From: Candidatus Poribacteria bacterium
Lineage (GTDB): Bacteria; Poribacteria; WGA-4E; WGA-3G
Length of the DNA: 64,000 nt
Assembly: GCA_026702755.1 (NCBI GenBank)
Contig: JAPPBX010000049.1
Span: forward strand, 12,057 to 76,056
Reading direction: 5' to 3'
Under the pieces are notes generated by a model. The model searched no databases. It worked only from the letters and a program-made list of their open reading frames with translations, and had not been told where the DNA came from. Shown here in pieces: positions 19,054 to 55,419 of this stretch. Position numbers and translations under genes: made by a program. How positions within the stretch are numbered: the first letter of the stretch is position 1; every line of letters begins with the position of its first letter.

Positions 19054-19142
19054 GTGCTTGTACGTTTCGGTCAGGATTTTCATAAAACCCAACTACTTTC
19101 TGGCGGGGTTGATGAAGATTAAGAATTTAATTTGGTAATGTA

Positions 19143-19180
19143 GGGGCAGGCACAAGACCTGCCCCTACAATCATTTTCCT
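19143..19180 (+). terminator. hairpin GGGGCAGGCACAAGACCTGCCCC downstream of copy 1 (terminator-like; weak T-tract)
   Basis: 8-bp perfect stem. The same hairpin recurs at 24592 and a variant at 45620. Confidence 0.4.
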
Positions 19181-19279
19181 CAAGGATATTACCGAAATAT
19201 TTATTTAAACTTCATCAAACCCCGCCAACCTCAGTAAGTTTTCGCTTGTCAGCTGCACCCAAAATCAGGAGAAAAAATA

Positions 19280-21898: not shown

Positions 21899-21948
21899 AC
21901 CGAATTTACAACGTGAAAGTAAATAATGTAAAATAAGGAGAAAATTCA

Positions 21949-24564
21949 ATGCAACGCCAATTGACTTTTTGGCTCTGTTTAATTCTAATCAGCAGTTGTT
22001 ACCTGCCGATATTCGCACAACAAGCAGCACAACCCGCAACACAAGAAGCACCCACGAAACCAAAAAAAGAGTTCCCAGACTTCTCGAAAGTTATCGAGGA
22101 TAGCAAAAGCTACCAAGGTTTTTTCAAACTATACCAGAAAAAAGAGAATCTTTATTGTGAGATACAACCCGCACAATTGAACCAACCCTTTCTATGCATG
22201 ATTAGTCTTGCGCGCGGCTTAGGGAGAGGATCCCTTATCTCTGGGATGACGATGGATGAGTGGCTGCTGGTCTGGCGACGCGTTGGCGACAACGTGCATC
22301 TCATGCGAAAAAATGTGCGTTTCCGCGCTGATAAAGGGACACCGACCGCACAGGCGGTTGACTACGGTTATAGTGACTCTGTGCTGTTCTCTCTTAAGAT
22401 TGAAAGTATCCATCCACAACGGAAAAGCCTTTTGGTAAATATCTCACCTGTTTTTGTATCCGATCTACCGCCTTTGGCACGTAGGATCGCCCCAGATGCG
22501 CGCTTCGACAGAACGCGCAGCACTTGGGGAAAAATCAAGACATTCCCAAAGAATGTGGAGTTGAAAGTTAACGCGGCGTACACCTCGTCAAGTTATATAG
22601 AAACTGTGCCCGACAGTCGTGGGATTCAATTGACGCTGCACTATAGCCTCGCGAAACTTCCATCGAACAACTACCGTCCTCGGTTGGCTGACGACCGGCT
22701 TGGACACTTTATGACAACAATCAAAGATTACTCGCTTCAAACCAGCGATGCGCCGTATATCCGTTACGTCAATCGATGGCATCTGGAGAAAGCAGACAAA
22801 AAGGCGAAACTCTCACCTCCGATGGATCCGATCATTTTCTACATTGAGAAAACGGTGCCGCACCGGTTTCGTCCGTACATTCGCCAAGGGATCCTGGAAT
22901 GGAACAAGGCATTTGAAAAGGCAGGCTTTGTCGATGCAATTGAGGCACGTATTCAACAAGATTACGAGGATTGGGACCCCGAAGATGCCCGCTATAACAC
23001 GATCCGCTGGGTTGTTGACGCAGGCTTCGCGATTGGTCCGTCCCGCGTGAACCCGTTGACAGGACAGATATTGGATGCCGATATTCTTATCAGCGACGTT
23101 TTTATCAGAAGTTGGCAGCGACAGTATAAAACATACTTTGATGAGTTAGCACACGAGCGCGATCATCCGATGGATCACACCTCACACTTTCAGTGTCAAC
23201 TGGCATCTGGATTGACACGTCAGATGGGGTTCATGGCGAGCGTCTTGCAGGCACGCGGTCTGACGGGCGAAGACGGTGAATTACCAGAAAAATTTATCGG
23301 CGAGGCACTGAAAACACTGACGATGCATGAGGTCGGTCACACATTGGGATTACGTCACAATTTTAAATCGAGTACGATATACTCTCTTGACGATCTGAAC
23401 GACAAAACAGACGAGGCAACCGTCGGTTCCGTCATGGATTACTGGGGCGTGAATGTTGCTCCCGAAGGTAAAGAACAGGGACATTACTATACGCCGACGG
23501 TTGGTCCTTGGGATTATTGGGTCGTCGAGTATGCCTATAAACCGATTGCTGCAAGTAACCCTGAAGGTGAATTGGAGGCATTGGGTAAAATCGCCTCCCG
23601 TGTCGCAACACCGGAACTTACCTACGGAACAGATGGCGATGTTTACAGCTATCAATACCGTAATCTGGATCCGCTGGTAAATGTTTGGGATCTGGGTGCC
23701 GACCCGCTTGAGTTTGCCAAACAACGGCGAGAAATTGTCGTTAACCTTTGGGACAAAATTGCGGATAAGGTCACAAAAGAGGGGATGGGCTATCAACGGG
23801 TCCGACAGGCATTTGGGAGATTGCTTGGTGAACATGCGAATGCGATGTACTTTGCAAGCCGATATATCGGTGGGCAGTATCACCATCGCGATCATCGCGG
23901 TGATGAAAATGGACGTTTACCTTTTGTGCCGGTTCTCGCAGCGAAACAACGCGAAGCACTCCAATTCCTCAAAGAACACGCCCTCTCGGACAAAGCCTTC
24001 GATTTCTCGGCTGACCTACTCAACAGTCTCGCTGTCACGCGTTGGAGTGATTGGGGATCAAGTAGTGGGAGTTCTACGCGTTTGGATTATCCCGTGCATC
24101 AGATCATTCTGAACAATCAAACCTTTATCTTGGGACGACTGCTTTATCCGAATGTTCTGGCGCGGATTCAGGACACAGAGTTGAAGTTTCCTAAGGGTGA
24201 AGATGTGTTCACACTGCCAGAACTCTTTTCAGGTATCACGGACGCTGTCTGGGTAGAACTTGATCGGAATGTCGGCGAAAAGCAGTGGTCGAATACCGAT
24301 GCTTTCATTTCCAGTTTCCGGCGCGGTTTGCAGCGGGAACACCTCAAGCAGCTTATCAAACTGGTGTTGGAGGCTGATAGTGGCACCCCGGAGGATGCAA
24401 GGTCGCTCGCACGCCTACATCTCGAAGAAATCAACACGCAGATACAAGGCGTACTTCAGAATGCGCAAGGGAGACTTGACGATTATAGTTTAGCACACCT
24501 CGAAGAATCGCAGGTCCGAGTCGCAAAGGCTCTGGATGCGAGTTTCCAAGTTCAGAAACGGTGA
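21949..24564 (+). CDS. secreted zinc-dependent metalloprotease, 871 aa, tandem copy 3
   Basis: Same architecture. LTMHEVGHTLGLRHNF. AAGGAG ribosome-binding site. Only 50 bp after copy 2. Confidence 0.8.
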   Translation: MQRQLTFWLCLILISSCYLPIFAQQAAQPATQEAPTKPKKEFPDFSKVIEDSKSYQGFFKLYQKKENLYCEIQPAQLNQPFLCMISLARGLGRGSLISGMTMDEWLLVWRRVGDNVHLMRKNVRFRADKGTPTAQAVDYGYSDSVLFSLKIESIHPQRKSLLVNISPVFVSDLPPLARRIAPDARFDRTRSTWGKIKTFPKNVELKVNAAYTSSSYIETVPDSRGIQLTLHYSLAKLPSNNYRPRLADDRLGHFMTTIKDYSLQTSDAPYIRYVNRWHLEKADKKAKLSPPMDPIIFYIEKTVPHRFRPYIRQGILEWNKAFEKAGFVDAIEARIQQDYEDWDPEDARYNTIRWVVDAGFAIGPSRVNPLTGQILDADILISDVFIRSWQRQYKTYFDELAHERDHPMDHTSHFQCQLASGLTRQMGFMASVLQARGLTGEDGELPEKFIGEALKTLTMHEVGHTLGLRHNFKSSTIYSLDDLNDKTDEATVGSVMDYWGVNVAPEGKEQGHYYTPTVGPWDYWVVEYAYKPIAASNPEGELEALGKIASRVATPELTYGTDGDVYSYQYRNLDPLVNVWDLGADPLEFAKQRREIVVNLWDKIADKVTKEGMGYQRVRQAFGRLLGEHANAMYFASRYIGGQYHHRDHRGDENGRLPFVPVLAAKQREALQFLKEHALSDKAFDFSADLLNSLAVTRWSDWGSSSGSSTRLDYPVHQIILNNQTFILGRLLYPNVLARIQDTELKFPKGEDVFTLPELFSGITDAVWVELDRNVGEKQWSNTDAFISSFRRGLQREHLKQLIKLVLEADSGTPEDARSLARLHLEEINTQIQGVLQNAQGRLDDYSLAHLEESQVRVAKALDASFQVQKR

Positions 24565-43009: not shown

Positions 43010-44038
43010 ATGCAGGAGATTGTTGTACATTCAGCGCGATTACACGATTTCGCCCGGACGCTTTGTGACAAGGCAGGATTGCGCTCTGAAGACGGGAAGA
43101 CGATCGCGATACATCAGGTGCTAACCGATCTGCGCGGTGTGCATTCACACGGCACACGTGCCTTGCCGGGTTACCTCAACCTTATCCTTGATGGGAAGAT
43201 GAACGCACAACCCGCCCTTCGCATCGCGACAGAGGGTCCAAGCTTCGCTGTCGTTGACGGAGATAATGGGATGGGTCATCTGGCAAGCACGCTGGCAATG
43301 GAGACAGCGATAGCAAAGGCGAAAACGACAGGCATCGCTGCTGTAGGGGTTCGCAACGCTGGACATTTCGGTGCAGCCGCATGCTACGCAATTATGGCGG
43401 CATCGAACCAGATGATCGGATTTTCGACAACAAACACAGGTGGCGCATCTATTGTCGCTCCGGGTGGTGCTGAAGCGGTGGTCGCCAACAACGCGATGAG
43501 TTACGCCTTGCCCATCGGTGACGGGCATCCGATCGTATTAGACATGGCGTGTGGGGTATCGGCGTGGGGAAAGATAGGTACACTACGGATGTACGGTAAA
43601 CCGATTCCAGACGGTTGGCTTATAGATGAAACAGGCCAACCTACCAGCGATCCAGATAAGGGACGCTTCCTTGCACCAGCAGCGGGACCGAGGGGTTATG
43701 GATTGGCACTCATTATGGGCATTTTAGCGGGTCCTCTCAGTGGTGGTTTGATGGCTTGCAATAAATCAGGCGATCCCTCTGAGCACTTCTTCTTCGCTAT
43801 GGATGTTGCGAGTTTCACAGACTACGACGGCTATGTTGCGGAAATCCAACGGGGCATAGATAAGATTCACGCTTCAAAAACGGCAGAAGGCGTGGAACAG
43901 GCATACCTCCCCGGCGAAATTGAGTGGAACAACTACGACAATTACCTTGAGAATGGCATTCCCATTCATGTAGACCATTTACGAGGCCTCGCAGGCATCG
44001 CTGATAAGTTAGATGTTCCTATCTGTTGGGAGTGGTAG
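43010..44038 (+). CDS. Ldh_2 family (malate/L-lactate/ureidoglycolate type 2) dehydrogenase
   Basis: Start moved to ATG at 43010 with a GGAGAGG ribosome-binding site. HSHGTRALPGY and VGVRNAGHFGAAA motifs. Confidence 0.75.
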   Translation: MQEIVVHSARLHDFARTLCDKAGLRSEDGKTIAIHQVLTDLRGVHSHGTRALPGYLNLILDGKMNAQPALRIATEGPSFAVVDGDNGMGHLASTLAMETAIAKAKTTGIAAVGVRNAGHFGAAACYAIMAASNQMIGFSTTNTGGASIVAPGGAEAVVANNAMSYALPIGDGHPIVLDMACGVSAWGKIGTLRMYGKPIPDGWLIDETGQPTSDPDKGRFLAPAAGPRGYGLALIMGILAGPLSGGLMACNKSGDPSEHFFFAMDVASFTDYDGYVAEIQRGIDKIHASKTAEGVEQAYLPGEIEWNNYDNYLENGIPIHVDHLRGLAGIADKLDVPICWEW

Positions 44039-44103
44039 GAAAGGGGCGATAACAGGTCAACGCCTCAATCCATAACCAAAATTAGAGGGGGAAGGGGTAC
44101 ACT

Positions 44104-45600
44104 ATGGCAGAAACGAAAGAAACTGTATCAGGCGGCACACTCCCCGATTGGGAGGTTGAAGATTTACCTGCACCACCGAAGTACCAATTTGGAAAAGCGT
44201 TTCGGAGTATCTTAGGTCCCGGCATCATCGCCTTAGGAGGTTCAATCGGTAGTGGTGAGTGGTTGCTCGGTCCCGCGATAACCGCCCAATATGGAGGCAG
44301 TCTCCTGTGGATTGCAACAATCGCTATCTTGCTTCAAGCAATTCTTAACACGGAAGCAATCCGCTACACACTTTATACCGGCGAACCGATGTTGAGTGGT
44401 TATATGCGCTGCAAACCGGGCGCGCCTTTCTGGGCATCTTTCTATTCGGGAGTTAACTTTTTTGGCATTTGGCCCGGTTGGGCGATGACCGCTGCGACGG
44501 CACTCGGTGCGGCATGGCTCGGCTATATGCCGCAAGATGCGGATAGTAGCACGGTACGTCTGTTCGCATATCTCATCTTTTTCGCGTGTTTAGGGATCGT
44601 GTTGTTTGGTGGAAAGATTTACAACGCACTTGAGAAGGTGCAGCTATTCATGGTCATCTGGATTATCAGTTACCTTGTCGTTATTGATCTGTTTATGGTG
44701 CCGCCACGCGTGTGGTGGACTGCTATCAAAGGGTTCTTTAGCTTCGGGGCACTCCCCGCACCAGGGCCAGATGGACAAGTCAATTGGCTGTTGCTTGGGG
44801 CATTCGCTGCTTACGCCGGAAGTGGTGGGTTAGGCAATGTCACAATCACCAATTATGTCCGCGATAAAGGGTGGGGCATGAGCAGTCTCGTCGGTGCGAT
44901 CCCATCAATGATCGGTGGACAAAATGTAACGCTTTCACACTGGGGCAAGGTGTTTCGTATCTCACCAGAAAACCTCAAGCGGTTCAAGGAGTGGTGGAAA
45001 TATGTCCGATTTGAGCAGTACGGTATCTGGATGATCGGATGTTTCATAGGTATTGCCCTGCCCGCGATGCTGACCCTGGAATTTGTGCCTTCAGGGCAGG
45101 AGATGGACCAGTGGTCTGCAGCAGGATTCCAAGCGGAAGGACTCGCAGCAAAAGGCGGTAGAGTGATGTGGTATCTCACACTGTTGTGCGGGTTCTGGGT
45201 ACTGTTCTCGACGCAACTTGGTGGTGTGGACGGCGTGCCTCGTACTTACACGGATATTATATGGACCGGATTGAAGCGTGCGCGAAATCTCGGTGAACAC
45301 AACGCAAAATGGATCTATTACCCGATTCTCGGTGTCTACATTATCTGGGGCATCATCGCGATATATCTCGTCAAACCGTTCTTTATGATTCTGGTATCGG
45401 CAACGATTGGTGGCTACTTACTTGTAATTACCGCGTTACATACGCTTTACGTCAACTGGAAATTCTTACCCCCAGAGATACAAGCACCGTTGTGGAAACA
45501 GATTGGGTTGGTATTGTGCGCGGGATATTATTCGATCTTCGGAACGATTACCGTCTATCAGAAAGTACTTGTGCCTTATGTTTTCCCGATTTTTGGGTAA
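44104..45600 (+). CDS. polytopic membrane transporter, distantly Nramp/APC-like; function uncertain
   Basis: Ten or more hydrophobic helices. GPGIIALGGSIGSGEWLLGP resembles Nramp TM1 but lacks the DPGN motif. Confidence 0.4.
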   Translation: MAETKETVSGGTLPDWEVEDLPAPPKYQFGKAFRSILGPGIIALGGSIGSGEWLLGPAITAQYGGSLLWIATIAILLQAILNTEAIRYTLYTGEPMLSGYMRCKPGAPFWASFYSGVNFFGIWPGWAMTAATALGAAWLGYMPQDADSSTVRLFAYLIFFACLGIVLFGGKIYNALEKVQLFMVIWIISYLVVIDLFMVPPRVWWTAIKGFFSFGALPAPGPDGQVNWLLLGAFAAYAGSGGLGNVTITNYVRDKGWGMSSLVGAIPSMIGGQNVTLSHWGKVFRISPENLKRFKEWWKYVRFEQYGIWMIGCFIGIALPAMLTLEFVPSGQEMDQWSAAGFQAEGLAAKGGRVMWYLTLLCGFWVLFSTQLGGVDGVPRTYTDIIWTGLKRARNLGEHNAKWIYYPILGVYIIWGIIAIYLVKPFFMILVSATIGGYLLVITALHTLYVNWKFLPPEIQAPLWKQIGLVLCAGYYSIFGTITVYQKVLVPYVFPIFG

Positions 45601-45619
45601 AACGCTACACAGTTCCTAT

Positions 45620-45642
45620 GGGGTAGGTACAAGACCTACCCC
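45620..45642. terminator. hairpin GGGGTAGGTACAAGACCTACCCC between convergent genes
   Basis: Same loop (ACAAGA) and stem type as the hairpins at 19143 and 24592. Confidence 0.4.
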
Positions 45643-47150
45643 TACGTATAGGTTTCCGACACAATTGCTGCCACAAGACTCTTGACGGAGGCTTCCTTTG
45701 CCATCACGTCAACGTGAACGCCATGTTCCACTGCTGTTTTCTGTGTTGTGGGACCGATGACTGCGACCTTGACATCGGCGAGTAGGACTGTAGGTTGGTG
45801 TGCGGGGAACATCTCTAAGAAGTTCGTAACCGTTGAGGAACTGGTGAAGGTGACGAAGTCTATGCTGCCGTTTAGGAGTTCCGCTTCAATTGCCTCTCGG
45901 TTTTCGCCCGGTACCCTGACGGTATCATAGAGCGGTACATTATCGACATGTGCTCCTTTCTCGCGCAAAGCATCGGGGAGATCAGCAGTGGCGATTTTTG
46001 CACGCGGCAGGAGGATTTTCTTCCCGCATACATCCCCTATTTCAACGGCGATCGCACTTCCACGGGCGTTGGATGGGACAAAATCGGGGTGGATACCGAT
46101 GTCGTTGAGGGCTTCCACCGTTTTCGATCCAACCGCGCAGACGCTGCTTTCGCCGAATGCTCGTGCATCCTTGTCCTTTTCTCGTAAACTCTCATAGAAA
46201 ATCTCTACAGCATTGACACTCGTGAAGATAACCCAATCGTATTCGTTGGGAGAAGGCACGTCTACACCTTCAATAGGTTGAATCCTTATCGTGGGGAATT
46301 GGATGACTTCGGCACCGTTTGCTTCTAAAAGATCCGCGAATTCGCTTGCCTGTGCGCGGGCGCGCGTGACAAGGATCCGTTTTCCGAAGAGCGGTTTGGT
46401 GTCAAACCATCGGAGTTGCTCACGCAAACGGTTCACCTCACCGACCACGATAAGTGCTGGACTCTTGAGTTGGGCTGCCTCTACTTTTTGTACAATATCG
46501 GTAAGGGTGCCTTGGACGACGTGCTGTTGCGGTGTCGTTCCGACGCGGACTAAACTAACAGGTGTTTCAGGATCTCTACCGTTTGTTATCAGCCGTTCTA
46601 CAATTTGGCGAAGGTGTGCAACCCCCATGTAGACAACGAGTGTATCCACCGCCGTAGCGAGCTGTTCCCAGTTGATATTTGAATCTGAACGCAGTGCAGC
46701 GGAATGCCCCGTAACAAAAGCGACTGACGAGGCATAGTCACGATGCGTGACTGGAATACCGGCATAAGCGGTTGCAGCAACCGCAGAAGTGACACCGGGA
46801 ACGATCTCAAATGGAATGTTTGCTTCGGTGAGCGCAATCGCTTCCTCGCCGCCTCGCCCGAAGATATATGGGTCTCCACCCTTGAGACGAACAACAATTT
46901 TGCCTGCTTTCGCGTGCTCAACCAGCAAATGATTGAGTTCATCTTGGCGGGTGGCGCGGACTCTCGGATCGGGTGCTTGGATTTTTTCGGTGTGCGCGGG
47001 ACAATGTTCCAGTAATGCATCGTTGAGCAGTAGATCGTAGATGACGACATCGGCGCGTTGAAGGCATTCCACGCCTTTGAGGGTGATAAGTTTTCTATCC
47101 CCCGGACCTGCCCCTACGATATAGACGATACCCGTGCTCGGTTTGTTCAT
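45642..47150 (-). CDS. cobA-hemD: uroporphyrinogen-III C-methyltransferase / uroporphyrinogen-III synthase fusion (CobA-HemD)
   Basis: N-terminal IVYIVGAGPGDRKLITLKG...GGDPYIFGRGGEE SUMT motifs. C-terminal HemD-like half. Confidence 0.85.
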   Translation of the reverse strand: MNKPSTGIVYIVGAGPGDRKLITLKGVECLQRADVVIYDLLLNDALLEHCPAHTEKIQAPDPRVRATRQDELNHLLVEHAKAGKIVVRLKGGDPYIFGRGGEEAIALTEANIPFEIVPGVTSAVAATAYAGIPVTHRDYASSVAFVTGHSAALRSDSNINWEQLATAVDTLVVYMGVAHLRQIVERLITNGRDPETPVSLVRVGTTPQQHVVQGTLTDIVQKVEAAQLKSPALIVVGEVNRLREQLRWFDTKPLFGKRILVTRARAQASEFADLLEANGAEVIQFPTIRIQPIEGVDVPSPNEYDWVIFTSVNAVEIFYESLREKDKDARAFGESSVCAVGSKTVEALNDIGIHPDFVPSNARGSAIAVEIGDVCGKKILLPRAKIATADLPDALREKGAHVDNVPLYDTVRVPGENREAIEAELLNGSIDFVTFTSSSTVTNFLEMFPAHQPTVLLADVKVAVIGPTTQKTAVEHGVHVDVMAKEASVKSLVAAIVSETYT

Positions 47151-48073
47151 TTGTCGCTCTCCTGCGCCTTCAACAGTTCAGTCGCGCCACTATTCTTGAG
47201 TTTTTCGGCGACGACCCTACCTAAGTGTTTTGCTGCGCCTGGCGTTCCTGTGGCACGCTCCATAATGCGTACGCTACCTTCTGGATGACAGACCGTCCCG
47301 ACGAGTGAGAGTTTACCATCAGTATGCTTGGCATACGCGCCAATCGGTACTTGACATCCACCACCGAGGCTTTCCAAAACGGCTCTTTCAGCGGCGATTT
47401 CTGCTGTTGCACGGTGGTTGTTTAAAGGCGAGATCAGTTTTTCAACCCGGTCATCCGCTTCCCGTGTTTCAATCGCGAGTGCCCCTTGTCCAACTGCTGG
47501 GACCATCTGTTCTGTATGAAAAAATTGTGTAATAACCTCCTGTTTGAGAAGACGCTTAATGCCAGCAGCGGCGAGGATAATTCCGTCAAGATCGGTTTCA
47601 TGAAGTTTGCGTAATCGGGTATCAACGTTGCCGCGAACATCAACAACTTGCACGTCTGGGCGGATGTAGAGGAGTTGTGCTTTTCGGCGTGGGCTTGTGG
47701 TGCCGATTTTTGCACCTCCTGGTAGGCTTTCTAAGGGGAGTCCCGTGGCAGTGATGAGCACATCGCGTGGATCTTCTCGTGCGGGAATAGCAGCTATGCA
47801 GAGTCCTGCGGGTAATTCTGTCGGAAGATCCTTCAAACTATGAACAGCGAGGTCAATGTCGTCAATTAGGAGCGCATTTTCTATCTCTTTGGTAAAAACA
47901 CCTTTGCCCAGTCCGACCAACGAGCGGTTTTGAATCGTGTCGCCCGTGGTTTTGATGACTTTGAGGTGGACCTCAATATCCGAAAAATGGCGTTCTAATT
48001 GATCTTTGACGAATTGCGACTGCCAAAGCGCGAGTTGACTACCACGTGTGCCGATTGTGAGCGAGTTGTGCAT
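47147..48073 (-). CDS. hemC: hydroxymethylbilane synthase (porphobilinogen deaminase)
   Basis: TIGTRGSQLALWQ N-terminus. 4-bp overlap with cobA-hemD. Confidence 0.9.
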   Translation of the reverse strand: MHNSLTIGTRGSQLALWQSQFVKDQLERHFSDIEVHLKVIKTTGDTIQNRSLVGLGKGVFTKEIENALLIDDIDLAVHSLKDLPTELPAGLCIAAIPAREDPRDVLITATGLPLESLPGGAKIGTTSPRRKAQLLYIRPDVQVVDVRGNVDTRLRKLHETDLDGIILAAAGIKRLLKQEVITQFFHTEQMVPAVGQGALAIETREADDRVEKLISPLNNHRATAEIAAERAVLESLGGGCQVPIGAYAKHTDGKLSLVGTVCHPEGSVRIMERATGTPGAAKHLGRVVAEKLKNSGATELLKAQESDK

Positions 48074-48209
48074 TTTTTTTATAGTTGTCGGTTGTCAGAA
48101 GAATGGCTGTCGGTTTCCATCAGCAGTCAGCGGTCAGTCGCATAAGGCAGTGAAAGCGTCGGTAAATACCACGCGTCCTCTTAACTCTCACTGCGAGGCA
48201 AACTGATAA
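48074..48209. repeat. operon-internal GTCRG-rich spacer repeat plus AACTCTCACTGCGAGGCAAACTG box
   Basis: TGTCGGTTGTCAG...GCTGTCGG...CAGTCAGCGGTCAGTC. The box is also at 55383..55405. Confidence 0.6.
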
Positions 48210-49499
48210 CTATTCATCGTTAACATCCAAGGCGAATAATTCCCGTAACGCTTGAACATACTGTCCGTGATCAGCATCGCCATCGTTAACGGCGCAGCGA
48301 AGGTTCTCCATGGGATGGTGGAGCAGTTTTTTGACGATTGCTTGGGTCATAGAGGCGACAGCTGCCTCCTGCTGATCAGAAAGTGTTGCCTTGTAGAAAC
48401 ATGCTTGCAATTCAGTGTCAGCGATCTCTCGAAACTGCTGGTGGAGTGCTTTAATAGTGGGATTGACCTGAAAGATTTGCAATTGGTCGTAGAACCGCTT
48501 CGCCTCCTCAGCGACAATCTGTTCTGCTCGGGTTGCTTCCTGTTGTCGATCCTTGAGGTTGGAGGCGACAACGGCTTCGAGGTCGTCAATATTATACAGG
48601 AAGGCGTGGTCAATCTTACTCACATCGGGTTCTATATCGCGTGGTACAGCGATGTCAATGAGAAACATATACCGGTGCTTCCGTTTCCGCATAATGTTAG
48701 CGAGTGGCTGTCGTTTGATAAGATAATCCGGGGCATCGGTAGAACTAATAACGATGTCAGCATCAATGAGGAAACCGAGGTCGCTATTATAAGGGAGAGG
48801 TGTGCCGTTAAACTTCTCGGCGATTTTGACCGCCCGCTGGTATGTACGATTCGCGACAATCACGTTAGAGACACCATTTGCAACGAGATGCTTTGCTGTG
48901 AGTTCACTCATTTCACCTGCGCCGACAATCGCAACAGTCTTACCCTCAAGTGTATTGAAAATCCTTTTGGCGAGTTCAACGGCGGCGTAACTAATAGAAA
49001 CGGCACCTGTAGCAATAGTTGTCTCGGAGCGGATGCGTTTGCCAACGCTGAAAGCTTTGGTGAAAAGACGATTGAGAACCGTACCCGTGCTACCTGACGC
49101 ACGAGAGAAGTCGTAAGCGGCTTTGATTTGCCCCAGTATTTGGGATTCACCGACGACCATAGAATCAAGGCTCGATGTCACCCTGAAGAGATGTTGGATC
49201 GTCTCCAAGTTATAGTGAACATAACTCCATTTCTTGAGCGATTCCATGTCAATCTGGTGGTAACGGGAGAGGAATTGAACCAATATCTTGGCAGCTGCAT
49301 CGGCACTCCGCACGGGGTTCGCGACCGCATAGATTTCTACGCGGTTGCAAGTAGAGAGAATGACGGCTTCTTGAACCTGATCAGATTCACGAAGGTGCTG
49401 GAGGGATTCAGTAAGTTGTTCTTCGGAAAACGCCAATCTTTCCCTGAATTCAATGGGAGCGACATGATGGCTGGTTCCGACGGAAACGATTTGGTTCAT
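48210..49499 (-). CDS. hemA: glutamyl-tRNA reductase
   Basis: Start set at MNQIVSVGTSHHVAPIEFRE with a GAAGGA ribosome-binding site. Catalytic Cys in STCNRVEIY. Confidence 0.85.
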   Translation of the reverse strand: MNQIVSVGTSHHVAPIEFRERLAFSEEQLTESLQHLRESDQVQEAVILSTCNRVEIYAVANPVRSADAAAKILVQFLSRYHQIDMESLKKWSYVHYNLETIQHLFRVTSSLDSMVVGESQILGQIKAAYDFSRASGSTGTVLNRLFTKAFSVGKRIRSETTIATGAVSISYAAVELAKRIFNTLEGKTVAIVGAGEMSELTAKHLVANGVSNVIVANRTYQRAVKIAEKFNGTPLPYNSDLGFLIDADIVISSTDAPDYLIKRQPLANIMRKRKHRYMFLIDIAVPRDIEPDVSKIDHAFLYNIDDLEAVVASNLKDRQQEATRAEQIVAEEAKRFYDQLQIFQVNPTIKALHQQFREIADTELQACFYKATLSDQQEAAVASMTQAIVKKLLHHPMENLRCAVNDGDADHGQYVQALRELFALDVNDE

Positions 49500-49605
49500 T
49501 CCTTCTACCAAAAAATCTAAAAACGTGAAATGTTGTTTATATGCTTCGTAAATTATATCACATGTCAGCGGTTGTGTCAAATTTAGAATGGGTAACTGGA
49601 ATTAT

Positions 49606-51075
49606 TCAATTGTCCTGTGGTTTCTCAATATCTTGATGTTTTTGCTCGGTCTGTTTTCCGACATCTGGATTTAGTTCCCTAGCTTTTTCATAGTCAACTC
49701 GTGCTTCTTCTTGCAATCCGAGTGCCTGCTTTACCAGACTGCGGCTGTAGTAGGCGAGTGCACAATCCGGTTTGAGGTTGATAGTTTCAGTATAATCCTC
49801 TATAGCATCACGATAGTGGCTTTCTGTCTGCTCCATATTCCCCTGATCCGTTTCCAATTTACCGAAGTAAAATTTTGCATCACCACGATTTCTGTAAGTA
49901 TCGGTATCCTCCGGTTCAAGCAAAAGTTTCGCGTAATGGCGCATTAGAGAATCCTCGGCATACTCCGCTGAATTTAATCTAAGGGCTTCAGTACAATCGT
50001 CAATCGCTGCACAGTAGTACTCTTGTGCTTGCTCTTGGTCGCCTTGGGAGGCTGCGGATTGCGCCAGTTTAGTTTTCGTATAACCGCGATTACTATAGGC
50101 ACCTGCATACTCTGAGTTAAGTTTGATGGCTTTATTAAAGTCTGCAATCGCCTCGTTATAGTAGTTCAGTGCCTGTTCCACATTTCCCTTAGCCACCTCA
50201 GATTCACCTAATTTAGTCTTCGCATAACCGAGAATTCTGTCATCCTGTCCTAAACCTTCTTCCGCGTCGAGTTTGTTAGCTGTATTAAAGTCTGCAACAG
50301 CTTCGTGATAATAATGTTGTGCTTCCTCTGCGTTTTCCTTGACTTCTTCAAATTGGCCGAGATGTAACTTTGCAAGACCGCAAATTCCGTAAGCAGCAGC
50401 AAACTCCGGATTTAGCTCAACGGTTTTATCAAAAGCATCTATCGCTTCAGCATGGGCACCATGAAGAAATTTGAATTGTCCTTGAGCGTAGTAAGTATAG
50501 GCACGTATAGGATCTTTTTTCCGAAACTGTGCTAAAGGTTCGGTTAACTCCGATTGAGAAAGCAATACCTTGAGAGCGTTTGAGGGAACAGCAACACCGT
50601 AAGTTCCTGTGCTGCCAGCAGCAACACCTATAACTTCACTTTTACTGTTGAGCATAGGACCACCACTCATGCCCCCCACATACTCAGCGTCCACCCAAAA
50701 CTTTTTGCTGTCACCGCGGATACCCTGTATGATTCCGGTTGTGACCTTGTATTCAGTTTCTGGGAAACCTAAAGTAAAAACTCGTTCGCCGATCTGAACA
50801 GCGTCACTGTTCCCAAGTGGAAGAGGTTTACCTTCAGCCAACACCTTTAAGATAACCAAGTCATTTTTAAGATCAAACGTTGTTACACCGTCTACTTCCC
50901 ACACGGTTTCTCCATCAACTGACTTCGCAGAAACCAGTCCCTCCCCATAAACAGCATGGATGTTGGTAACAACCTTTTCAGGTTCTACAAAGAATCCACT
51001 ACCGACACCAACGAGTTTTCCCGATTCCGCCTCAATCGAGCGGATTTGTACAATAGATTCTCCGTTATGTTTCAT
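49606..51075 (-). CDS. trypsin-like serine protease with TPR repeats (paralog 3, no signal peptide at chosen start)
   Basis: Triad contexts TNIHAV, NDLVILK and GGMSGGP. Long TPR C-terminus. Start set at MKHNGES to avoid a 150 bp overlap with the upstream gene. Confidence 0.7.
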   Translation of the reverse strand: MKHNGESIVQIRSIEAESGKLVGVGSGFFVEPEKVVTNIHAVYGEGLVSAKSVDGETVWEVDGVTTFDLKNDLVILKVLAEGKPLPLGNSDAVQIGERVFTLGFPETEYKVTTGIIQGIRGDSKKFWVDAEYVGGMSGGPMLNSKSEVIGVAAGSTGTYGVAVPSNALKVLLSQSELTEPLAQFRKKDPIRAYTYYAQGQFKFLHGAHAEAIDAFDKTVELNPEFAAAYGICGLAKLHLGQFEEVKENAEEAQHYYHEAVADFNTANKLDAEEGLGQDDRILGYAKTKLGESEVAKGNVEQALNYYNEAIADFNKAIKLNSEYAGAYSNRGYTKTKLAQSAASQGDQEQAQEYYCAAIDDCTEALRLNSAEYAEDSLMRHYAKLLLEPEDTDTYRNRGDAKFYFGKLETDQGNMEQTESHYRDAIEDYTETINLKPDCALAYYSRSLVKQALGLQEEARVDYEKARELNPDVGKQTEQKHQDIEKPQDN

Positions 51076-51101
51076 GAATGGACCTCCGTCAGTTTTTTGA
51101 A

Positions 51102-51944
51102 TTATCGGTATGTATGCATGCTGTCTAAAAAGAGATCCACGCCGACATAGGTGCAGAGCACAGCAACGAAACCGAGGATTGCAGCGTACGCAGCTCTTCG
51201 TCCGTGCCACCCCCAAAACTGGCGGAGACCAATTTGGACGATATAGATGAACCACGTCACGAAGGTGGAGATTACCTTCGCATCAAGCCACCTCCACGGG
51301 ACATCTCGGATATATTGGGTCCAAAGACTCCCAACGATGACCCCCATTGTGAGCAGAATTACACCAAGAATTGTGCAGCGATACCCAAGCTCATCGGAAG
51401 TCCCGAGAGAAGGAAGGAGATTGTCAAGGAGTGCGTCCGTCTTCTGGCGAATCTTCCGCTCCGTCATCAGGTACATCAGTCCAAACCCAAACGCGGCGAT
51501 AAACGCTGCATAGGCGAGGAAAATAAGTGTGGTATGCGCCAGAAGCCAATAGTTTTGCAACGGTTCCGGGAGTGCAGCGGTGTGCGTGGCGAAACTATAC
51601 GAAATGAGGATAGCAATGAATGCAACAGGCATCACAAAACTACCGAGTGTGCGGAGATGCGTCAAACGCACGATGATGAGATAGATAAGTGTGATTGCCC
51701 ATGCAAAGAAGGCAGTGGAGTCGGTCCAGTGCGTCATCGGAAAATGCCCTTGTTGGAGCCACCAGAGCGCGATAAAGAGGGTCAGAAAAGCAAAACCGAT
51801 GCTGGTGCTCCAAAAAGCGATTCGTTCAATTGTCGGACGGATCACCGCCGCTCCGGATCTATTGCCGATAGCCAGCGAAAGGGTTTGAAAAATGCTCGCT
51901 GCTAAGTATATTAGAAGGGTGAGGAGAAACAGAAAATTTATCAT
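51102..51944 (-). CDS. cytochrome c assembly protein family (CcsA/HemX-like) membrane protein
   Basis: Eight hydrophobic helices and a tryptophan-rich segment. Position upstream of hemA as in hemAXCDBL-type operons. Confidence 0.6.
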   Translation of the reverse strand: MINFLFLLTLLIYLAASIFQTLSLAIGNRSGAAVIRPTIERIAFWSTSIGFAFLTLFIALWWLQQGHFPMTHWTDSTAFFAWAITLIYLIIVRLTHLRTLGSFVMPVAFIAILISYSFATHTAALPEPLQNYWLLAHTTLIFLAYAAFIAAFGFGLMYLMTERKIRQKTDALLDNLLPSLGTSDELGYRCTILGVILLTMGVIVGSLWTQYIRDVPWRWLDAKVISTFVTWFIYIVQIGLRQFWGWHGRRAAYAAILGFVAVLCTYVGVDLFLDSMHTYR

Positions 51945-52011
51945 ACGCTGTACTTTTTGAAACCATCAGGGCACACAGCAGGTGAATAATATGCCTCTCC
52001 GTTAGTCTTTT

Positions 52012-52875
52012 TCATTCGTTTTCATTTTCGCTGTTGACGAGTTGTGCCTGAAGGCGTTCTAACTCAGCCTCCACAGTCTGTCGCCGTTCCGTTTCCTCTC
52101 TGGCGAGTCTTTCTGCCACCTGTCGCCGTTCTGCTTCTTCTCTGGCGAGTCTTTCTGCCACCTGTCGCCGTTCTGCTTCTTCTTCTATCAACGTTTCCGC
52201 TGCCACTCGTAGGTGATGTTCTTCCATAGAAGTTGTAATCGGGGTTCCATCAGGGAGATAGGGACGTAACAGCCGCAGCTCCCACGCCTCATGCAGCTCC
52301 CACCGAAAATAAAGATTTAATGACGCACTGAACAAACCATCATCAGCATCTTCTTCAATCTCAACGATGTCGCCTAATGCATCCCGTCGCCACCCACGAA
52401 ATTCTATAGGGCGATTCATATCGGGTTGATGAATGAAATACTCCGCAACCCCCATATCACGCAGATACACCTCAACTTTTTCATGCCGGTCCTCAGACGC
52501 TGTTGTATCTGAAAGGAACTCAAAAACTGCTGTAGGGACGGTGCCTTCTGCCCAGGTATAAAAACTCCTTCGTAACGGAAGTTTCGGGGCACCGAGGGCG
52601 ACATACACATCGGGAGCCACGACCTTTCTGATATCGCCTTCTCGGTAATAGATAAAGTTGTCCATACCGACATGGATATACGGGTGTGCCTGAAAATATC
52701 GTAAGAATTGGTCAAATAAGCTATGCATCTGCATCCCGTGAAATTCGCCTGCTGGCATAGGTTCATCGTCCTCATAAGGGTAGCCTTGGATGTAAACGGT
52801 CGGTTTTCCACTCGCTTTTGGAAAGACAGGCATATACTTTCTTTGCTTGAGTTCAAAATCGTTTAGCGTCTTCAT
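52012..52875 (-). CDS. Uma2 family (DUF820) nuclease-like protein with C-terminal coiled-coil tandem repeat
   Basis: PDVYVALG...AVFEFLSDTT...KVEVY Uma2-type PD-(D/E)xK pattern. C-terminal (AERRQVAERLAREE)x2.5 encoded by a 39-bp tandem repeat at about 52063..52190. Confidence 0.55.
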   Translation of the reverse strand: MKTLNDFELKQRKYMPVFPKASGKPTVYIQGYPYEDDEPMPAGEFHGMQMHSLFDQFLRYFQAHPYIHVGMDNFIYYREGDIRKVVAPDVYVALGAPKLPLRRSFYTWAEGTVPTAVFEFLSDTTASEDRHEKVEVYLRDMGVAEYFIHQPDMNRPIEFRGWRRDALGDIVEIEEDADDGLFSASLNLYFRWELHEAWELRLLRPYLPDGTPITTSMEEHHLRVAAETLIEEEAERRQVAERLAREEAERRQVAERLAREETERRQTVEAELERLQAQLVNSENENE

Positions 52876-53000
52876 GATTTTCTTCCTTTGCCTATCGGGA
52901 CAGGAATGTCACTCATCCACGTAAGATGATTAAAGCAGTTCTCAACCGTTTTGAATTGAAAATCTTTAAAAAAGCAGACTATTTTCGATTTCGGGCAATT

Positions 53001-54176
53001 TTAACAACTCTCGTCCGCTTTGTCAAGTAGTTTGGCGGTAAAGGCGTTAGCGCGTTCCAAGTTGCCGTGCCGAACCCAGTTGAAAAGGCATTCGGCAGAA
53101 CATTCAGGATTTGTGAGACCGAGACAGCATGTTGTAGGAGGGGTTTGTAACCCCGATACCGAATCTTCAACGGTGTCAATGAGCATTTCAAAGAAGTCAG
53201 CACGCTTTTTAGGCGTTGGAAAAGCCTTGAGAATCTCAGAGCGGCGTGTTCCAAGGAATTCAACAAATGCTCCGTAGCCGTTGTTTTCAAATTGATTTGC
53301 GAGTTTTTTATGCAGGCGTTTCACCTTGTCAATGCCCGCGCCGCTCCGAGCCGATATACTGATTATTAGATTGTCATCTATTATGAGTTCAGGTGTGAAG
53401 TAGGTGCCGGTATCTGGTTCATCAAGGTATTCTCGAATGAAAGTACCTTCACTTCCATAAAACGCGCTTACAACAGAAGATTTATCTGCAATAACAAGGA
53501 ATGCATCTTCAAAGTGATGCGGTTCCATTTCGTCGGGTGCCGGGCATAACACAGAAGCACCACACTGATGTAGCAATGAGATACGGCGTTCAATTTCTGA
53601 CGTTCTTTCTTCACATAAGACGATACACGTGCGATTTTCCAATAGGAGATAGACTGGATAGGGCAGTCCTTGATTCTCGATCGGGACTGGTTCTCCATTT
53701 TCGTATCCGAGCGTATATAACGAAGTGGCGTTCAGCATGTCCTCAAAATATTCACGGATACGGCGGCTCGTCGCGGGACTTTTTCCACTTGTTGAGATGC
53801 TCAGCATGAGGTCGCCATCGGTTACGACAGAGGCAGCGGCAAAGGTGCATTGCGGGATAACATCAACAACATTGACCAAGCGAATTTTGTTTTTTTTGTG
53901 CGCTTCTGTGAAAACAGCACTATTAATATCCGTGAAATCAGTGGCTGTACAGACAAGAAAATAACCGTCTGTATCGCCAGGTTTCAACTGCCGCTCGTGC
54001 CAGCGGATTGTGCCGATATCTGAAAGGAAGGTCAGTAATTCCGTTGCGTCGGGACTGATTACGGTGACATCGCCGCCGCTGAGCAGCATAGCGACAACTT
54101 TTCGCTCCGCGACGGTGCCGCCACCGACAACGAGGCATTTCCGGTCCTGAAGGTTTATGTATGCAGGATAAAACAT
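53001..54176 (-). CDS. siroheme synthase N-terminal-type protein (precorrin-2 dehydrogenase / sirohydrochlorin ferrochelatase, SirC/Met8-like), apparently with a duplicated domain
   Basis: N-terminus MFYPAYINLQDRKCLVVGGGTVAERKV closely parallels the CysG N-terminus. A second similar block PVYLLLENRTCIVLCEERTSEIERRI follows. Confidence 0.65.
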   Translation of the reverse strand: MFYPAYINLQDRKCLVVGGGTVAERKVVAMLLSGGDVTVISPDATELLTFLSDIGTIRWHERQLKPGDTDGYFLVCTATDFTDINSAVFTEAHKKNKIRLVNVVDVIPQCTFAAASVVTDGDLMLSISTSGKSPATSRRIREYFEDMLNATSLYTLGYENGEPVPIENQGLPYPVYLLLENRTCIVLCEERTSEIERRISLLHQCGASVLCPAPDEMEPHHFEDAFLVIADKSSVVSAFYGSEGTFIREYLDEPDTGTYFTPELIIDDNLIISISARSGAGIDKVKRLHKKLANQFENNGYGAFVEFLGTRRSEILKAFPTPKKRADFFEMLIDTVEDSVSGLQTPPTTCCLGLTNPECSAECLFNWVRHGNLERANAFTAKLLDKADESC

Positions 54177-54267
54177 CTTAATGGTTGTCAGTGGTCAGTT
54201 GTTAATTGCCAGTTAAAAGGGACTTTGGTTAATCAAGCCTCTTTAACCGAAAACTGAAAACTATCCC
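54177..54267. repeat. operon-internal GTCAG-rich spacer repeat
   Basis: GGTTGTCAGTGGTCAGTTGTTAATTGCCAGTT. Confidence 0.55.
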
Positions 54268-55248
54268 TTATGACTCACGTGAAACGACGTAGTCCGCAAG
54301 TTTTACTAACGCGGTCCGGGCAGGTGTTTCAGGAAAGATTGCTAACGCTGCTTTGGCGCGGTCGGCGTAGCCTTGGGCAATTTTCAGACAGTGAGGTTCG
54401 ACACCGTATCGTTGGAACAGAGATTCAACAAAAGCGATTGCCTCGGTTTCATCCGTGTCAGGGTGTAGCATTTTTTCAAGCATCCGCTTCTCACTGTCAT
54501 CGCAGACCGTTCGCGCATAGATAATAGGAAATGTGAGTTTTCCTTCGCGGAGGTCACCGAACGCATCTTTCCCCAATTTATCGGAATCTTCTGTGAAATC
54601 AAGTAGGTCATCCACGATTTGGAAAGCGGTTCCGATCTGTTGTCCATAGACTGTGAGTGCCTCGATCTGCTGTGTATCTGTTGTACCGAGATGCGCACCA
54701 AGGGTGCAGGACGCAGCGATCAGTTTGCCGGTTTTGAAACTGATAATCTTGAGGTATTCGTCTTCGGAGATGTCAAAATCACCGCTCTTATATGCGTGGA
54801 TAACCTCACCTTCACACATCGCCTGTGTGGTATCGGCGAGGATCGCCATCGCTGGGTCATCAGAGCGGCGAGCCACAAGCATAGAAAGGACCCGTGCATG
54901 CAGGTAATCTCCGACGAGGACAGCGACCTTATTGCCCCATTTCGTCTGTAACGTTTCACGTCCACGGCGGATCGCAGCTTCGTCAAGTACATCGTCGTGA
55001 ACGAGCGACGCAACATGGATGAGTTCAACAACAGCAGCAAGTGTGTGTGCATCGCTCCCTTCATAGTCGCAAACTTTGGCAGAAAGCACAACGAGAATCG
55101 GACGGAGCCGTTTACCGCCACCCTCTACAACATGTTGGACCGCCATGTCAACAAAAGTGTATTCACTCGCGGTATGCTCGGTGAGTTTCGCTTCAATAGC
55201 ACTGAGGTCGTCGGCAATTAATTCAACAATTTGATCGAAGTTGGACAT
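54268..55248 (-). CDS. polyprenyl diphosphate synthase (trans-IPPS, IspB-like)
   Basis: First DDxxD LVHDDVLDE. Second FQIVDDLLDF. Confidence 0.85.
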   Translation of the reverse strand: MSNFDQIVELIADDLSAIEAKLTEHTASEYTFVDMAVQHVVEGGGKRLRPILVVLSAKVCDYEGSDAHTLAAVVELIHVASLVHDDVLDEAAIRRGRETLQTKWGNKVAVLVGDYLHARVLSMLVARRSDDPAMAILADTTQAMCEGEVIHAYKSGDFDISEDEYLKIISFKTGKLIAASCTLGAHLGTTDTQQIEALTVYGQQIGTAFQIVDDLLDFTEDSDKLGKDAFGDLREGKLTFPIIYARTVCDDSEKRMLEKMLHPDTDETEAIAFVESLFQRYGVEPHCLKIAQGYADRAKAALAIFPETPARTALVKLADYVVSRES

Positions 55249-55419
55249 AATGTAATGGTTTTCGGTTTTAATAGTTGTCAGTTTTCAGTACGATTTTTCT
55301 GCGAAAAATCTTTCAGTTATCGGTTAAGTACTTGTAATGGTTACCTTTCCTGTTCCTGCCATAAGAGACCTCTTTAACTGATAACTCTCACTGCGAGGCA
55401 AACTGGCGACTGACAACTA
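55249..55419. repeat. operon-internal spacer repeat (GTCAG-rich plus AACTCTCACTGCGAGGCAAACTG box)
   Basis: TAGTTGTCAGTTTTCAGT ... ATAACTCTCACTGCGAGGCAAACTGGCGACTGACAAC. Confidence 0.6.

Follow-up and report, generated by a model that had tools for sequence, protein, structure and literature searches.

Bacterial HtrA proteases are extracytoplasmic enzymes in which PDZ domains bind and present client peptides. In another group of systems, exemplified by NlpI-Prc of Escherichia coli and LbcA-CtpA of Pseudomonas aeruginosa, a lipid-anchored tetratricopeptide repeat (TPR) protein picks the clients for a serine protease of the C-terminal processing (S41) type (PMC8764530, PMC11021448). TPRs are also the most abundant eukaryote-like repeats in Poribacteria, where many of the respective genes encode signal peptides or transmembrane (TM) helices, and such repeat proteins have been postulated to mediate interaction with the host (PMC3909097). 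Proteolysis is established as a means of controlling glutamyl-tRNA reductase (GluTR, also GtrR; the HemA protein), through Lon and ClpAP in Salmonella and Clp in Arabidopsis, and HemX controls the same enzyme in Bacillus and Staphylococcus (PMC5801465). Here we analyze a gene that touches on all these themes: it occupies positions 49606..51075 (minus strand) of a 64,000-nucleotide stretch of contig JAPPBX010000049.1 (assembly GCA_026702755.1) of a sponge symbiont, a Candidatus Poribacteria bacterium, hereinafter the window, encodes a protease-TPR protein, and lies between a ccsA/HemX-like gene and hemA within a tetrapyrrole biosynthesis cluster. We consider it rather probable that the gene encodes an accessory TPR-guided protease, carried as an optional cassette that rides on the hemX transcript, that its product is probably cytoplasmic in the window allele, and that it has no dedicated role in heme control.

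The gene product is an HtrA-type serine protease in which a TPR solenoid replaces the PDZ module. The open reading frame (ORF) is open over 49606..51255 (minus strand) but has a single plausible start, the ATG at 51075 with GGAGG ahead of it, giving a protein of 489 aa. Pfam searches locate Trypsin_2 on residues 25-151 (E 4.5e-19) and several TPR families (TPR_1, TPR_2, TPR_11, and TPR_12) on residues ~185 to 470; these TPR families are the only Pfam matches past residue 180, and no PDZ domain was found in the protein. An AlphaFold2 model built from 44 homologs (pLDDT 89.4, pTM 0.86) comprises 14 helices behind an all-beta domain (residues 8-164) and is all-helical from residue 181 onward. According to Foldseek, the beta domain matches the catalytic domains of HtrA1, DegS, DegQ, Deg1, and MucD (TM-score ~0.72-0.78, root-mean-square deviation 2.1-2.8 Å, and 23-31% identity against the isolated catalytic domains of HtrA1 and DegS), and no solved structure among the Foldseek matches spans the protease and the TPRs together. 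A phmmer search of PDB sequences retrieves the S1C domain of RsgI9 (7e-12) and HtrA1 (3e-11). The triad residues H40, D72, and S137, as well as G135, G138, and P140, are invariant across 44 aligned family members. The combination of the fold match, the invariant triad, and the TPRs after residue 180 thus accounts for the assignment of the protein to the HtrA type. With the HtrA/DegP/DegS/DegQ proteases (MEROPS S1C) it shares the fold of the catalytic domain, the His-Asp-Ser triad, the GGxSGGP motif, and the presence of a C-terminal protein-binding module; it differs from them in carrying TPRs instead of PDZ, in scoring far below the Do-family cut-off (TIGR02037, 59.4 vs. 416.2 bits) as well as other curated thresholds (HhoA/HtrA, 54 vs. 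450; MarP, 55 vs. 250), and in being leaderless, whereas its relatives are lipoproteins.

Within the TPR solenoid, downstream of Trypsin_2, the window protein contains an irregular insert near residues 368-389 (YAEDSLMRHYAKLLLEPE; YAEDSLMR.YAKLLLEPE) that is a marker of the subfamily associated with the heme locus and is also found in P0008, P0009, P0013, and P0030. The ratio of nonsynonymous to synonymous substitution rates (dN/dS) among the leaderless alleles of this subfamily is 0.16-0.27, in the protease half and the TPR half alike, which is in the same range as among the lipoprotein alleles (0.22-0.26). The gene is intact and under purifying selection, not junk; together with the invariant triad, these values rule out a pseudogene or a gene in decay.

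The window protein contains no hydrophobic segment (the maximum Kyte-Doolittle mean over 19 residues is 0.85), and no signal peptide appears at any alternative start in the 60-codon in-frame upstream extension, which overlaps the ccsA-like gene. The observation of the initial annotation that this copy, unlike the two other paralogs in the window, lacks an obvious signal peptide at its most plausible start therefore stands, and it extends to all possible starts. In the other members of the subfamily, an N-terminal signal peptide precedes a lipobox (LFSC or LLSC), the exception being P0068, where the signal peptide is present but the cysteine is missing. In the leaderless group, which includes the window allele (L001), L006/L014, L010, L018, and P0002-P0007, the common start lies ~40 codons into the lipoprotein forms. 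The leaderless L001, L006, L010, and L018 also have in common the acGGAGG motif along with the start position, whereas most of the lipoprotein alleles lack this Shine-Dalgarno sequence. The common start and the common motif thus point to the leaderless form being a derived 5' truncation that arose in one event and is predicted to give an efficiently translated, signal-less protein. Intact versions of this form are found in at least 7 protein clusters (74-89% identity). Given that no export signal is present, the product of the window allele is most likely cytoplasmic, which would make it a natural case of an HtrA-like envelope protease that became cytoplasmic when its gene was cleanly truncated at the 5' end and that has since been maintained by selection. 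We also considered a programmed frameshift that would fuse HemX to the protease and export the latter through the outward-facing C-terminus of HemX; this scheme was rejected because the required shift is -1 in L001, L006, and L018 but +1 in L010, and both alternative frames at the 3' end of ccsA are simply open.

The same architecture, over 91-94% of the query, is present in cyanobacterial proteins that are named 'tetratricopeptide repeat-containing serine protease family protein' by NCBI (Nostoc, Acaryochloris plasmids). These proteins are only ~25% identical to the window protein, show no link to heme genes, and, in the example examined, have an ordinary signal peptide. The combination of a trypsin-like domain with TPRs is therefore a recognized, if uncharacterized, kind of protein that is normally exported. 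The family itself, for which 965 of the scored candidates are matches (two-module proteins and fusions among them, and all entries with a source name labeled Candidatus Poribacteria), is greatly expanded in this candidate phylum, and as a rule its members have an export signal, in most cases a lipobox. The ancestral, lipid-anchored alleles resemble the NlpI-Prc and LbcA-CtpA systems, and a weak match of the window protein to the NlpI profile (4e-7) was detected. However, those systems consist of two polypeptides and employ an S41 protease, whereas here an S1C protease and the TPRs form one chain, and the window allele has lost the anchor.

The best match of the protease domain among solved structures is the S1C ectodomain of the anti-sigma-I factor RsgI9 (PDB 7sjy), a Firmicute protein in which S1C was crystallized as a bi-domain with NTF2 and which has no TPRs. 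RsgI9 finds a parallel in fusions of ~803-819 aa (P0018 = L088:6001-8448; P0013, P0017, P0021, and P0024) that combine an extracytoplasmic function (ECF) sigma-70 factor (PF04542, PF08281), one TM helix, and the protease-TPR module. The parallel is incomplete in that RsgI9 is an anti-sigma factor rather than a sigma fusion, and the window gene encodes neither a sigma factor nor a TM segment. The fusions retain the intact triad, are nested in the tree of the heme-locus subfamily, and are located elsewhere in the genome, beside restriction-modification genes and MBOAT/AlgX genes. Their layout is reminiscent of a transmembrane sigma factor that has a protease ectodomain on the same chain.

A HemA-anchored scan of species-representative genomes yielded 80 poribacterial loci, all from metagenome-assembled genomes labeled as poribacterial or uncultured bacterium; 37 more distant HemA loci were left out. 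The ccsA-like gene is directly upstream of hemA in 73 of the 80 loci, and 63 of these 73 junctions contain no gene (gap of 91-440 bp). The protease-TPR gene occupies the junction in five species representatives (L010, L014, L018, L021, and L038), and other content is present in five more (L057, L077, L086, L068, and L059): an AAA_35 ATPase of 530-543 aa in three (L057:6303-7895, L077:6203-7828, and L086:6126-7757), an IS3-family transposase in L068 (L068:6967-7806), and fragments in L059. Accessory genes have recurrently landed in the ccsA-like|hemA junction. The loci with the protease gene fall in at least five separate places of a neighbor-joining tree built from seven concatenated cluster proteins. 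The sister of the window lineage, L008, has no protease-TPR gene, and no remnant of it was found in the respective 282-bp gap, so that for this pair the data fit a gain by the window lineage as well as a loss from L008. All members of the closest subfamily that were looked up (the window protein, P0003, P0008, P0029, P0030, P0035, P0047, P0066, P0068, and the translated L010 and L018) are encoded at the ccsA-like|hemA junction. Their identities range from 100% to as low as 48%; in the family tree, they group as a single clade, and in every case their genes follow the ccsA-like gene at a spacing of ~12-27 nt.

Loss of the gene by deletion is directly visible. In L050 (7817-7921), a 34-codon 5' stub that encodes the signal peptide and lipobox (MKHNRKSLFSLFIFFRMLFSC..., MKHNRKSLFSLFIFFRMLFSCTRAPQLIVK...) is joined directly to the hemA promoter, and in L060 (7708-8000), an ostensibly empty junction contains a relic encoding 41 residues of the TPR region. 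When the window is aligned with empty sites, homology resumes 18 nt past the protease stop codon, leaving 8 nt to the -35 box of the hemA promoter; beyond the ORF, the cassette therefore comprises just a short leader and a few bases, with neither a promoter nor a terminator of its own. The relics, the frequent loss of the gene, and the removal of the export signal by truncation could be taken to mean that the leaderless copy is itself a broken lipoprotein gene heading for loss, or else a recent neutral insertion. We regard this as extremely unlikely, given the persistence of the leaderless form in the at least 7 clusters described above, the dN/dS of 0.16-0.27 in both domains, the invariant triad, the canonical GGAGG ribosome-binding site that most lipoprotein alleles lack, and the age of the subfamily, with identity down to 48%. 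The initial annotation had suggested that relatives with hemX-hemA adjacency but without this gene, together with independent promoters and terminators around it, would indicate such an insertion. The bare adjacency is indeed found, in 63 of the 73 loci and in L008 among them; the gene's own promoter and terminator are not, and with an old positional subfamily under purifying selection, the idea of a recent neutral insertion is wrong.

The 106-bp gap between the protease gene and hemA contains a consensus promoter (TTGACA-N17-(TG)n-TATAAT). Of 79 poribacterial loci, 75 have this motif, 71 of them at -73 to -84 relative to the hemA ATG and 64 in perfect form, and it is kept with or without an upstream gene, and also where hemA is not beside the ccsA-like gene. 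Such conservation of a promoter across a candidate phylum is unusually strong. Hence the hemA-hemC-cobA/hemD unit appears to be driven by its own strong promoter, and the 106-bp gap cannot be taken as proof of co-transcription with hemA. Of the earlier proposal that tight gaps on both sides of the protease gene imply co-transcription, the part that survives is the close coupling to the CcsA/HemX-like gene, whereas the link to hemA does not. No terminator-like site is present between the protease gene and hemA in the window sequence, so that read-through into hemA is possible although not required. Most simply, the protease-TPR gene would be the last cistron of the hemX transcript. A candidate promoter for the hemX unit at 53026-52998 is not convincing, being located inside the sirC-like coding sequence and present in only 18 of 71 loci. 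In the leaderless locus L014 (= L006), the consensus hemA promoter is absent, and a GC-rich hairpin (GGCGGGGTTTCAAACCCCGCC) is found 110 nt upstream of hemA in a 209-bp gap.

Comparison of synonymous divergence (dS) between the protease gene and the flanking genes reveals a mismatch in two directions. Between the window locus and L006, L010, or L018, the median flank dS is 0.86-0.94 (0.64-1.25 for individual genes) as opposed to 0.28-0.40 for the protease gene, which was thus shared more recently. Conversely, close relatives can harbor divergent alleles: L006, with a leaderless allele, and L089, with a lipoprotein one, show a median flank dS of 0.21 but a protease dS of 1.68 (dN 0.36), and L004 and L021 show 0.50 and 1.38, respectively. 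Three control pairs yield ratios close to unity (L038 vs. L090, flank median 0.57 and protease 0.53, ratio 0.94; L021 vs. L089, 0.74 and 0.73, 0.99; L004 vs. L038, 1.19 and 1.12, 0.95), indicating that the intrinsic synonymous rate of the gene equals that of the flanks, so that the discrepancies are real. Furthermore, nucleotide identity to L006, tracked along the locus by sliding comparison, is 90-97% in the protease gene (10400-11300 in L001 coordinates) and 75-90% in the flanks. The flank/protease mismatch means that different lineages have traded alleles at this slot, with the conserved ccsA-like and hemA genes presumably serving as the sites of homologous recombination; the dS data favor a recent acquisition of the leaderless allele by the window lineage, which probably obtained it by such lateral exchange. 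The window allele is also a recombinant mosaic at its 3' end: over the last ~170 nt, nucleotide identity to L006 drops from >90% to 43-70%. The C-terminal tail encoded at 49606-49780 (minus strand; …DVGKQTEQKHQDIEKPQDN) is like that of the P0009/P0013 group, whereas the nearest alleles end in …ELNRQIEGSRDK. The protease-TPR gene is therefore an optional, frequently lost and swapped passenger. An origin from a mobile element was rejected, since the search for phage relatives produced only two weak partial matches and no close ones, and the plasmid homologs are limited to the cyanobacterial ones at 25% identity.

The position of the gene, 26 bp from hemX and next to hemA, invites a more specific interpretation, namely the regulated proteolysis of HemA put forward in the initial annotation. 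Under this scenario, in the lineages with the leaderless allele, a former periplasmic HtrA-TPR lipoprotein would have been re-deployed in the cytoplasm as a HemX-recruited proteolytic arm that is made together with HemX, binds glutamyl-tRNA reductase via the TPRs, degrades it, and so sets the tetrapyrrole flux. To our knowledge, neither a trypsin-like nor a TPR protein has so far been connected with the control of HemA/GtrR. The idea addresses a real gap because HemX lowers the abundance of GtrR post-transcriptionally by an unexplained mechanism in which proteolysis is suspected (PMC5801465, PMC10991733); were it true, the protein would be the first identified effector of HemX-dependent control of GtrR/HemA abundance. 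It is compatible with the intact triad, the purifying selection, and the lack of a leader, which would place the protease in the same compartment as HemA. A hemX-like gene beside hemA is a setting shared with known control of HemA/GtrR, and proteolysis of GluTR is an established mode of such control (PMC5801465). The known proteases of HemA/GtrR, however, are AAA+ machines unrelated to S1C, whereas the present gene is optional and, outside the leaderless group, encodes an exported protein. Indeed, the gene is absent from 63 of the 73 related species that keep hemX next to hemA, including the nearest relative; the other alleles at the site all carry an export signal, and such products are unable to reach cytoplasmic HemA; the window allele was acquired laterally with respect to its flanks; hemA has its own promoter; and unrelated genes fill the same junction elsewhere. 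Moreover, no column in HemA, HemX, HemC, or SirC discriminates the loci with the leaderless allele, so that co-adaptation of these proteins with the protease was rejected as well. Altogether, we find a dedicated HemA protease very unlikely: the gene is a tempting candidate only by virtue of its position, and the case cautions against reading function from gene position.

Another possibility is a partner on the envelope side of HemX. The ancestral lipoprotein could work in the periplasm with the CcsA-like protein, for example, in clearing apo-cytochromes or heme-handling intermediates, with the leaderless form being a neo-functionalized offshoot. The spacing of ~12-27 nt from the PF01578 gene in all alleles, the predicted extracytoplasmic location of the HemX termini (PMC5801465), and the role of TPR proteins as client adaptors for periplasmic proteases (PMC8764530, PMC11021448) are in line with this possibility. 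Nevertheless, we consider it quite improbable because most species with the HemX-like gene do without the protease gene, deeply divergent alleles in near-identical backgrounds speak against a fixed partner, the conserved position follows automatically from recombination through the flanks, and no direct link to heme or cytochromes was detected.

The repeated loss, deep divergence of alleles, and exchange hint at variable selection that is possibly related to conflict or to the host. Accordingly framed, the cassette would encode a diversifying surface or periplasmic protease-TPR protein subject to balancing or diversifying selection by phages or the sponge host, and the leaderless and sigma-fused forms would be alternative deployments. 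The presence/absence polymorphism and lateral exchange fit such a scenario, as do the abundance of poribacterial TPR proteins, often with signal peptides, and their postulated role in host interaction (PMC3909097), and patchy inserts in the neighborhood match PADLOC candidate families. A direct part in anti-phage defense, though, was rejected: in the PADLOC search, only the trypsin-like domain (residues 17-155) matches RT-Protease_XI and LmuA, at the domain level, and no partner genes were found. With dN/dS of 0.16-0.27, there is no whole-gene sign of positive selection; close phage relatives are lacking; and a cytoplasmic allele is ill-suited to a surface role. We therefore judge the conflict or host-interaction scenario to be unlikely.

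Returning to the optional cassette with a TPR-guided protease, we propose the following course of events and mode of action. One subfamily would have settled, apparently once, in the short stretch that separates the HemX-like stop codon from the -35 box of the hemA promoter, and would have been kept there as an optional cassette that was repeatedly deleted and whose alleles were swapped by homologous recombination through the flanks. The ancestral forms were probably a single-chain version of the NlpI-Prc and LbcA-CtpA pairs. The removal of ~40 codons at the 5' end, corresponding to the signal peptide and linker, combined with a new start that has a strong Shine-Dalgarno sequence, would have produced a leaderless protein that most likely stays in the cytoplasm. 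The protease-TPR gene would form the final cistron of the hemX transcript, with hemA-hemC-cobA/hemD expressed from their own promoter. By analogy with the PDZ domains of HtrA proteases and with NlpI and LbcA, the TPR solenoid most likely captures clients by extended peptide segments and presents these to the protease; the window allele, which keeps both the client-binding and the catalytic parts, is predicted to act on cytoplasmic clients.

Several points weigh against this proposal. The coupling to the HemX-like gene at ~12-27 nt is present in every allele and is kept down to 48% identity, which could mean a functional tie and not only an inherited position. A leaderless HtrA-like protease under purifying selection beside hemX and hemA is a candidate that suits the open question of how HemX acts on GtrR (PMC5801465). 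In L006/L014, where the consensus promoter is missing, hemA may rely on read-through from the protease gene or on another promoter. The cytoplasmic location, the co-transcription, and the binding of clients by the TPRs are all inferred. Finally, the trees are neighbor-joining reconstructions on limited data, from which the 37 more distant HemA loci were left out.

With respect to the genomic neighborhood, the minus-strand gene order given in the initial annotation is borne out by Pfam: hemB (ALAD), hemL (Aminotran_3), polyprenyl synthase, a sirC-like gene (NAD_binding_7/CysG-N), a gene encoding a 287-aa protein, the ccsA/HemX-like gene (Cytochrom_C_asm, PF01578), protease-TPR, hemA (GluTR), hemC (porphobilinogen deaminase), and cobA-hemD (a TP_methylase-HEM4 fusion). 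The gap lengths reported there are exact, with 26 bp from the stop of the PF01578 gene (51102) to the protease-TPR ATG (51075) and 106 bp from the protease-TPR stop (49606) to the hemA ATG (49499). The PF01578 gene product has ~7-8 hydrophobic helices by hydropathy and scores below the CcsB equivalog cut-off (143 vs. 187.6 bits); in its family, the predicted ~8 helices, the sub-CcsB score, and the proximity of gtrR/hemA and early heme genes, it fits the published description of HemX. The features discussed here are compiled in Table 1.

Table 1. Coordinates of the protease-TPR gene, its parts, and associated features in the window
Feature	Position	Strand	Basis or remarks
Protease-TPR gene, leaderless	49606..51075	-	ORF, start, and translation; Pfam Trypsin_2 + TPR; AlphaFold2; dN/dS
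Shine-Dalgarno GGAGG of the protease-TPR gene	51083..51087	-	7 nt before the ATG, within the 26-bp spacer after the ccsA-like stop; sequence
HtrA-type (S1C) protease domain	50551..51054	-	residues ~8-175
Catalytic codons	H40 50958-50956; D72 50862-50860; S137 50667-50665	-	S137 within the motif GGMSGGP
TPR solenoid	49672..50535	-	residues ~181-468; 14 helices (~7 repeats); Pfam and secondary structure of the model
hemA promoter, TTGACA-N17-(TG)n-TATAAT	49552..49580	-	12/12 sigma-70 match, extended -10; begins 25 nt past the protease stop
CcsA-like/HemX-like membrane protein gene	51102..51944	-	280 aa; PF01578 3.9e-28; upstream cistron
hemA (glutamyl-tRNA reductase)	48210..49499	-	429 aa; Pfam GlutR_N, Shikimate_DH, GlutR_dimer; first gene of the hemA-hemC-cobA/hemD unit
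Gene for a 287-aa protein between the sirC-like and ccsA-like genes	52012..52875	-	second patchy insert; in only some related loci
Distant paralog 1	3585..5120 (start alternatively 5210)	-	42% identity to the window protein; lipoprotein signal (MKANRISLLGLLFLSFLFSC)
Distant paralog 2	1844..3208	-	38% identity to the window protein; lipoprotein signal (MKVDRKSIFVLLTLGFLFSC)

The gene for the 287-aa protein had been labeled Uma2-like, which could not be confirmed: even at E<=10 Pfam yields nothing, NCBIfam gives no match either, and the single match is to the PADLOC candidate family PDC-S03 (1e-9). The protein has a charged, repetitive C-terminus (EEAERRQVAERLAREE repeated). The protease-TPR gene is, as initially annotated, the third paralog in the window. 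The other two, which were found by tblastn followed by alignment and a family tree, both carry the LFSC lipobox and fall on remote branches of that tree, far from the heme-locus clade. These two genes are tandem neighbors and adjoin a Lamin Tail Domain gene (5569-6768). No Rfam family reaches the gathering score in the cluster or the hemA leader (44000-59000). Elsewhere in the window, positions 16438-24564 (plus strand) encode three tandem paralogs of ~871 aa, each composed of DUF5118, DUF5117, and DUF4953 (Met-zincin). In the related locus L004, an ankyrin-repeat gene (L004:3743-4873) lies between the polyprenyl synthase and sirC-like genes and is a lineage-specific insert of eukaryote-like repeats in the heme cluster.

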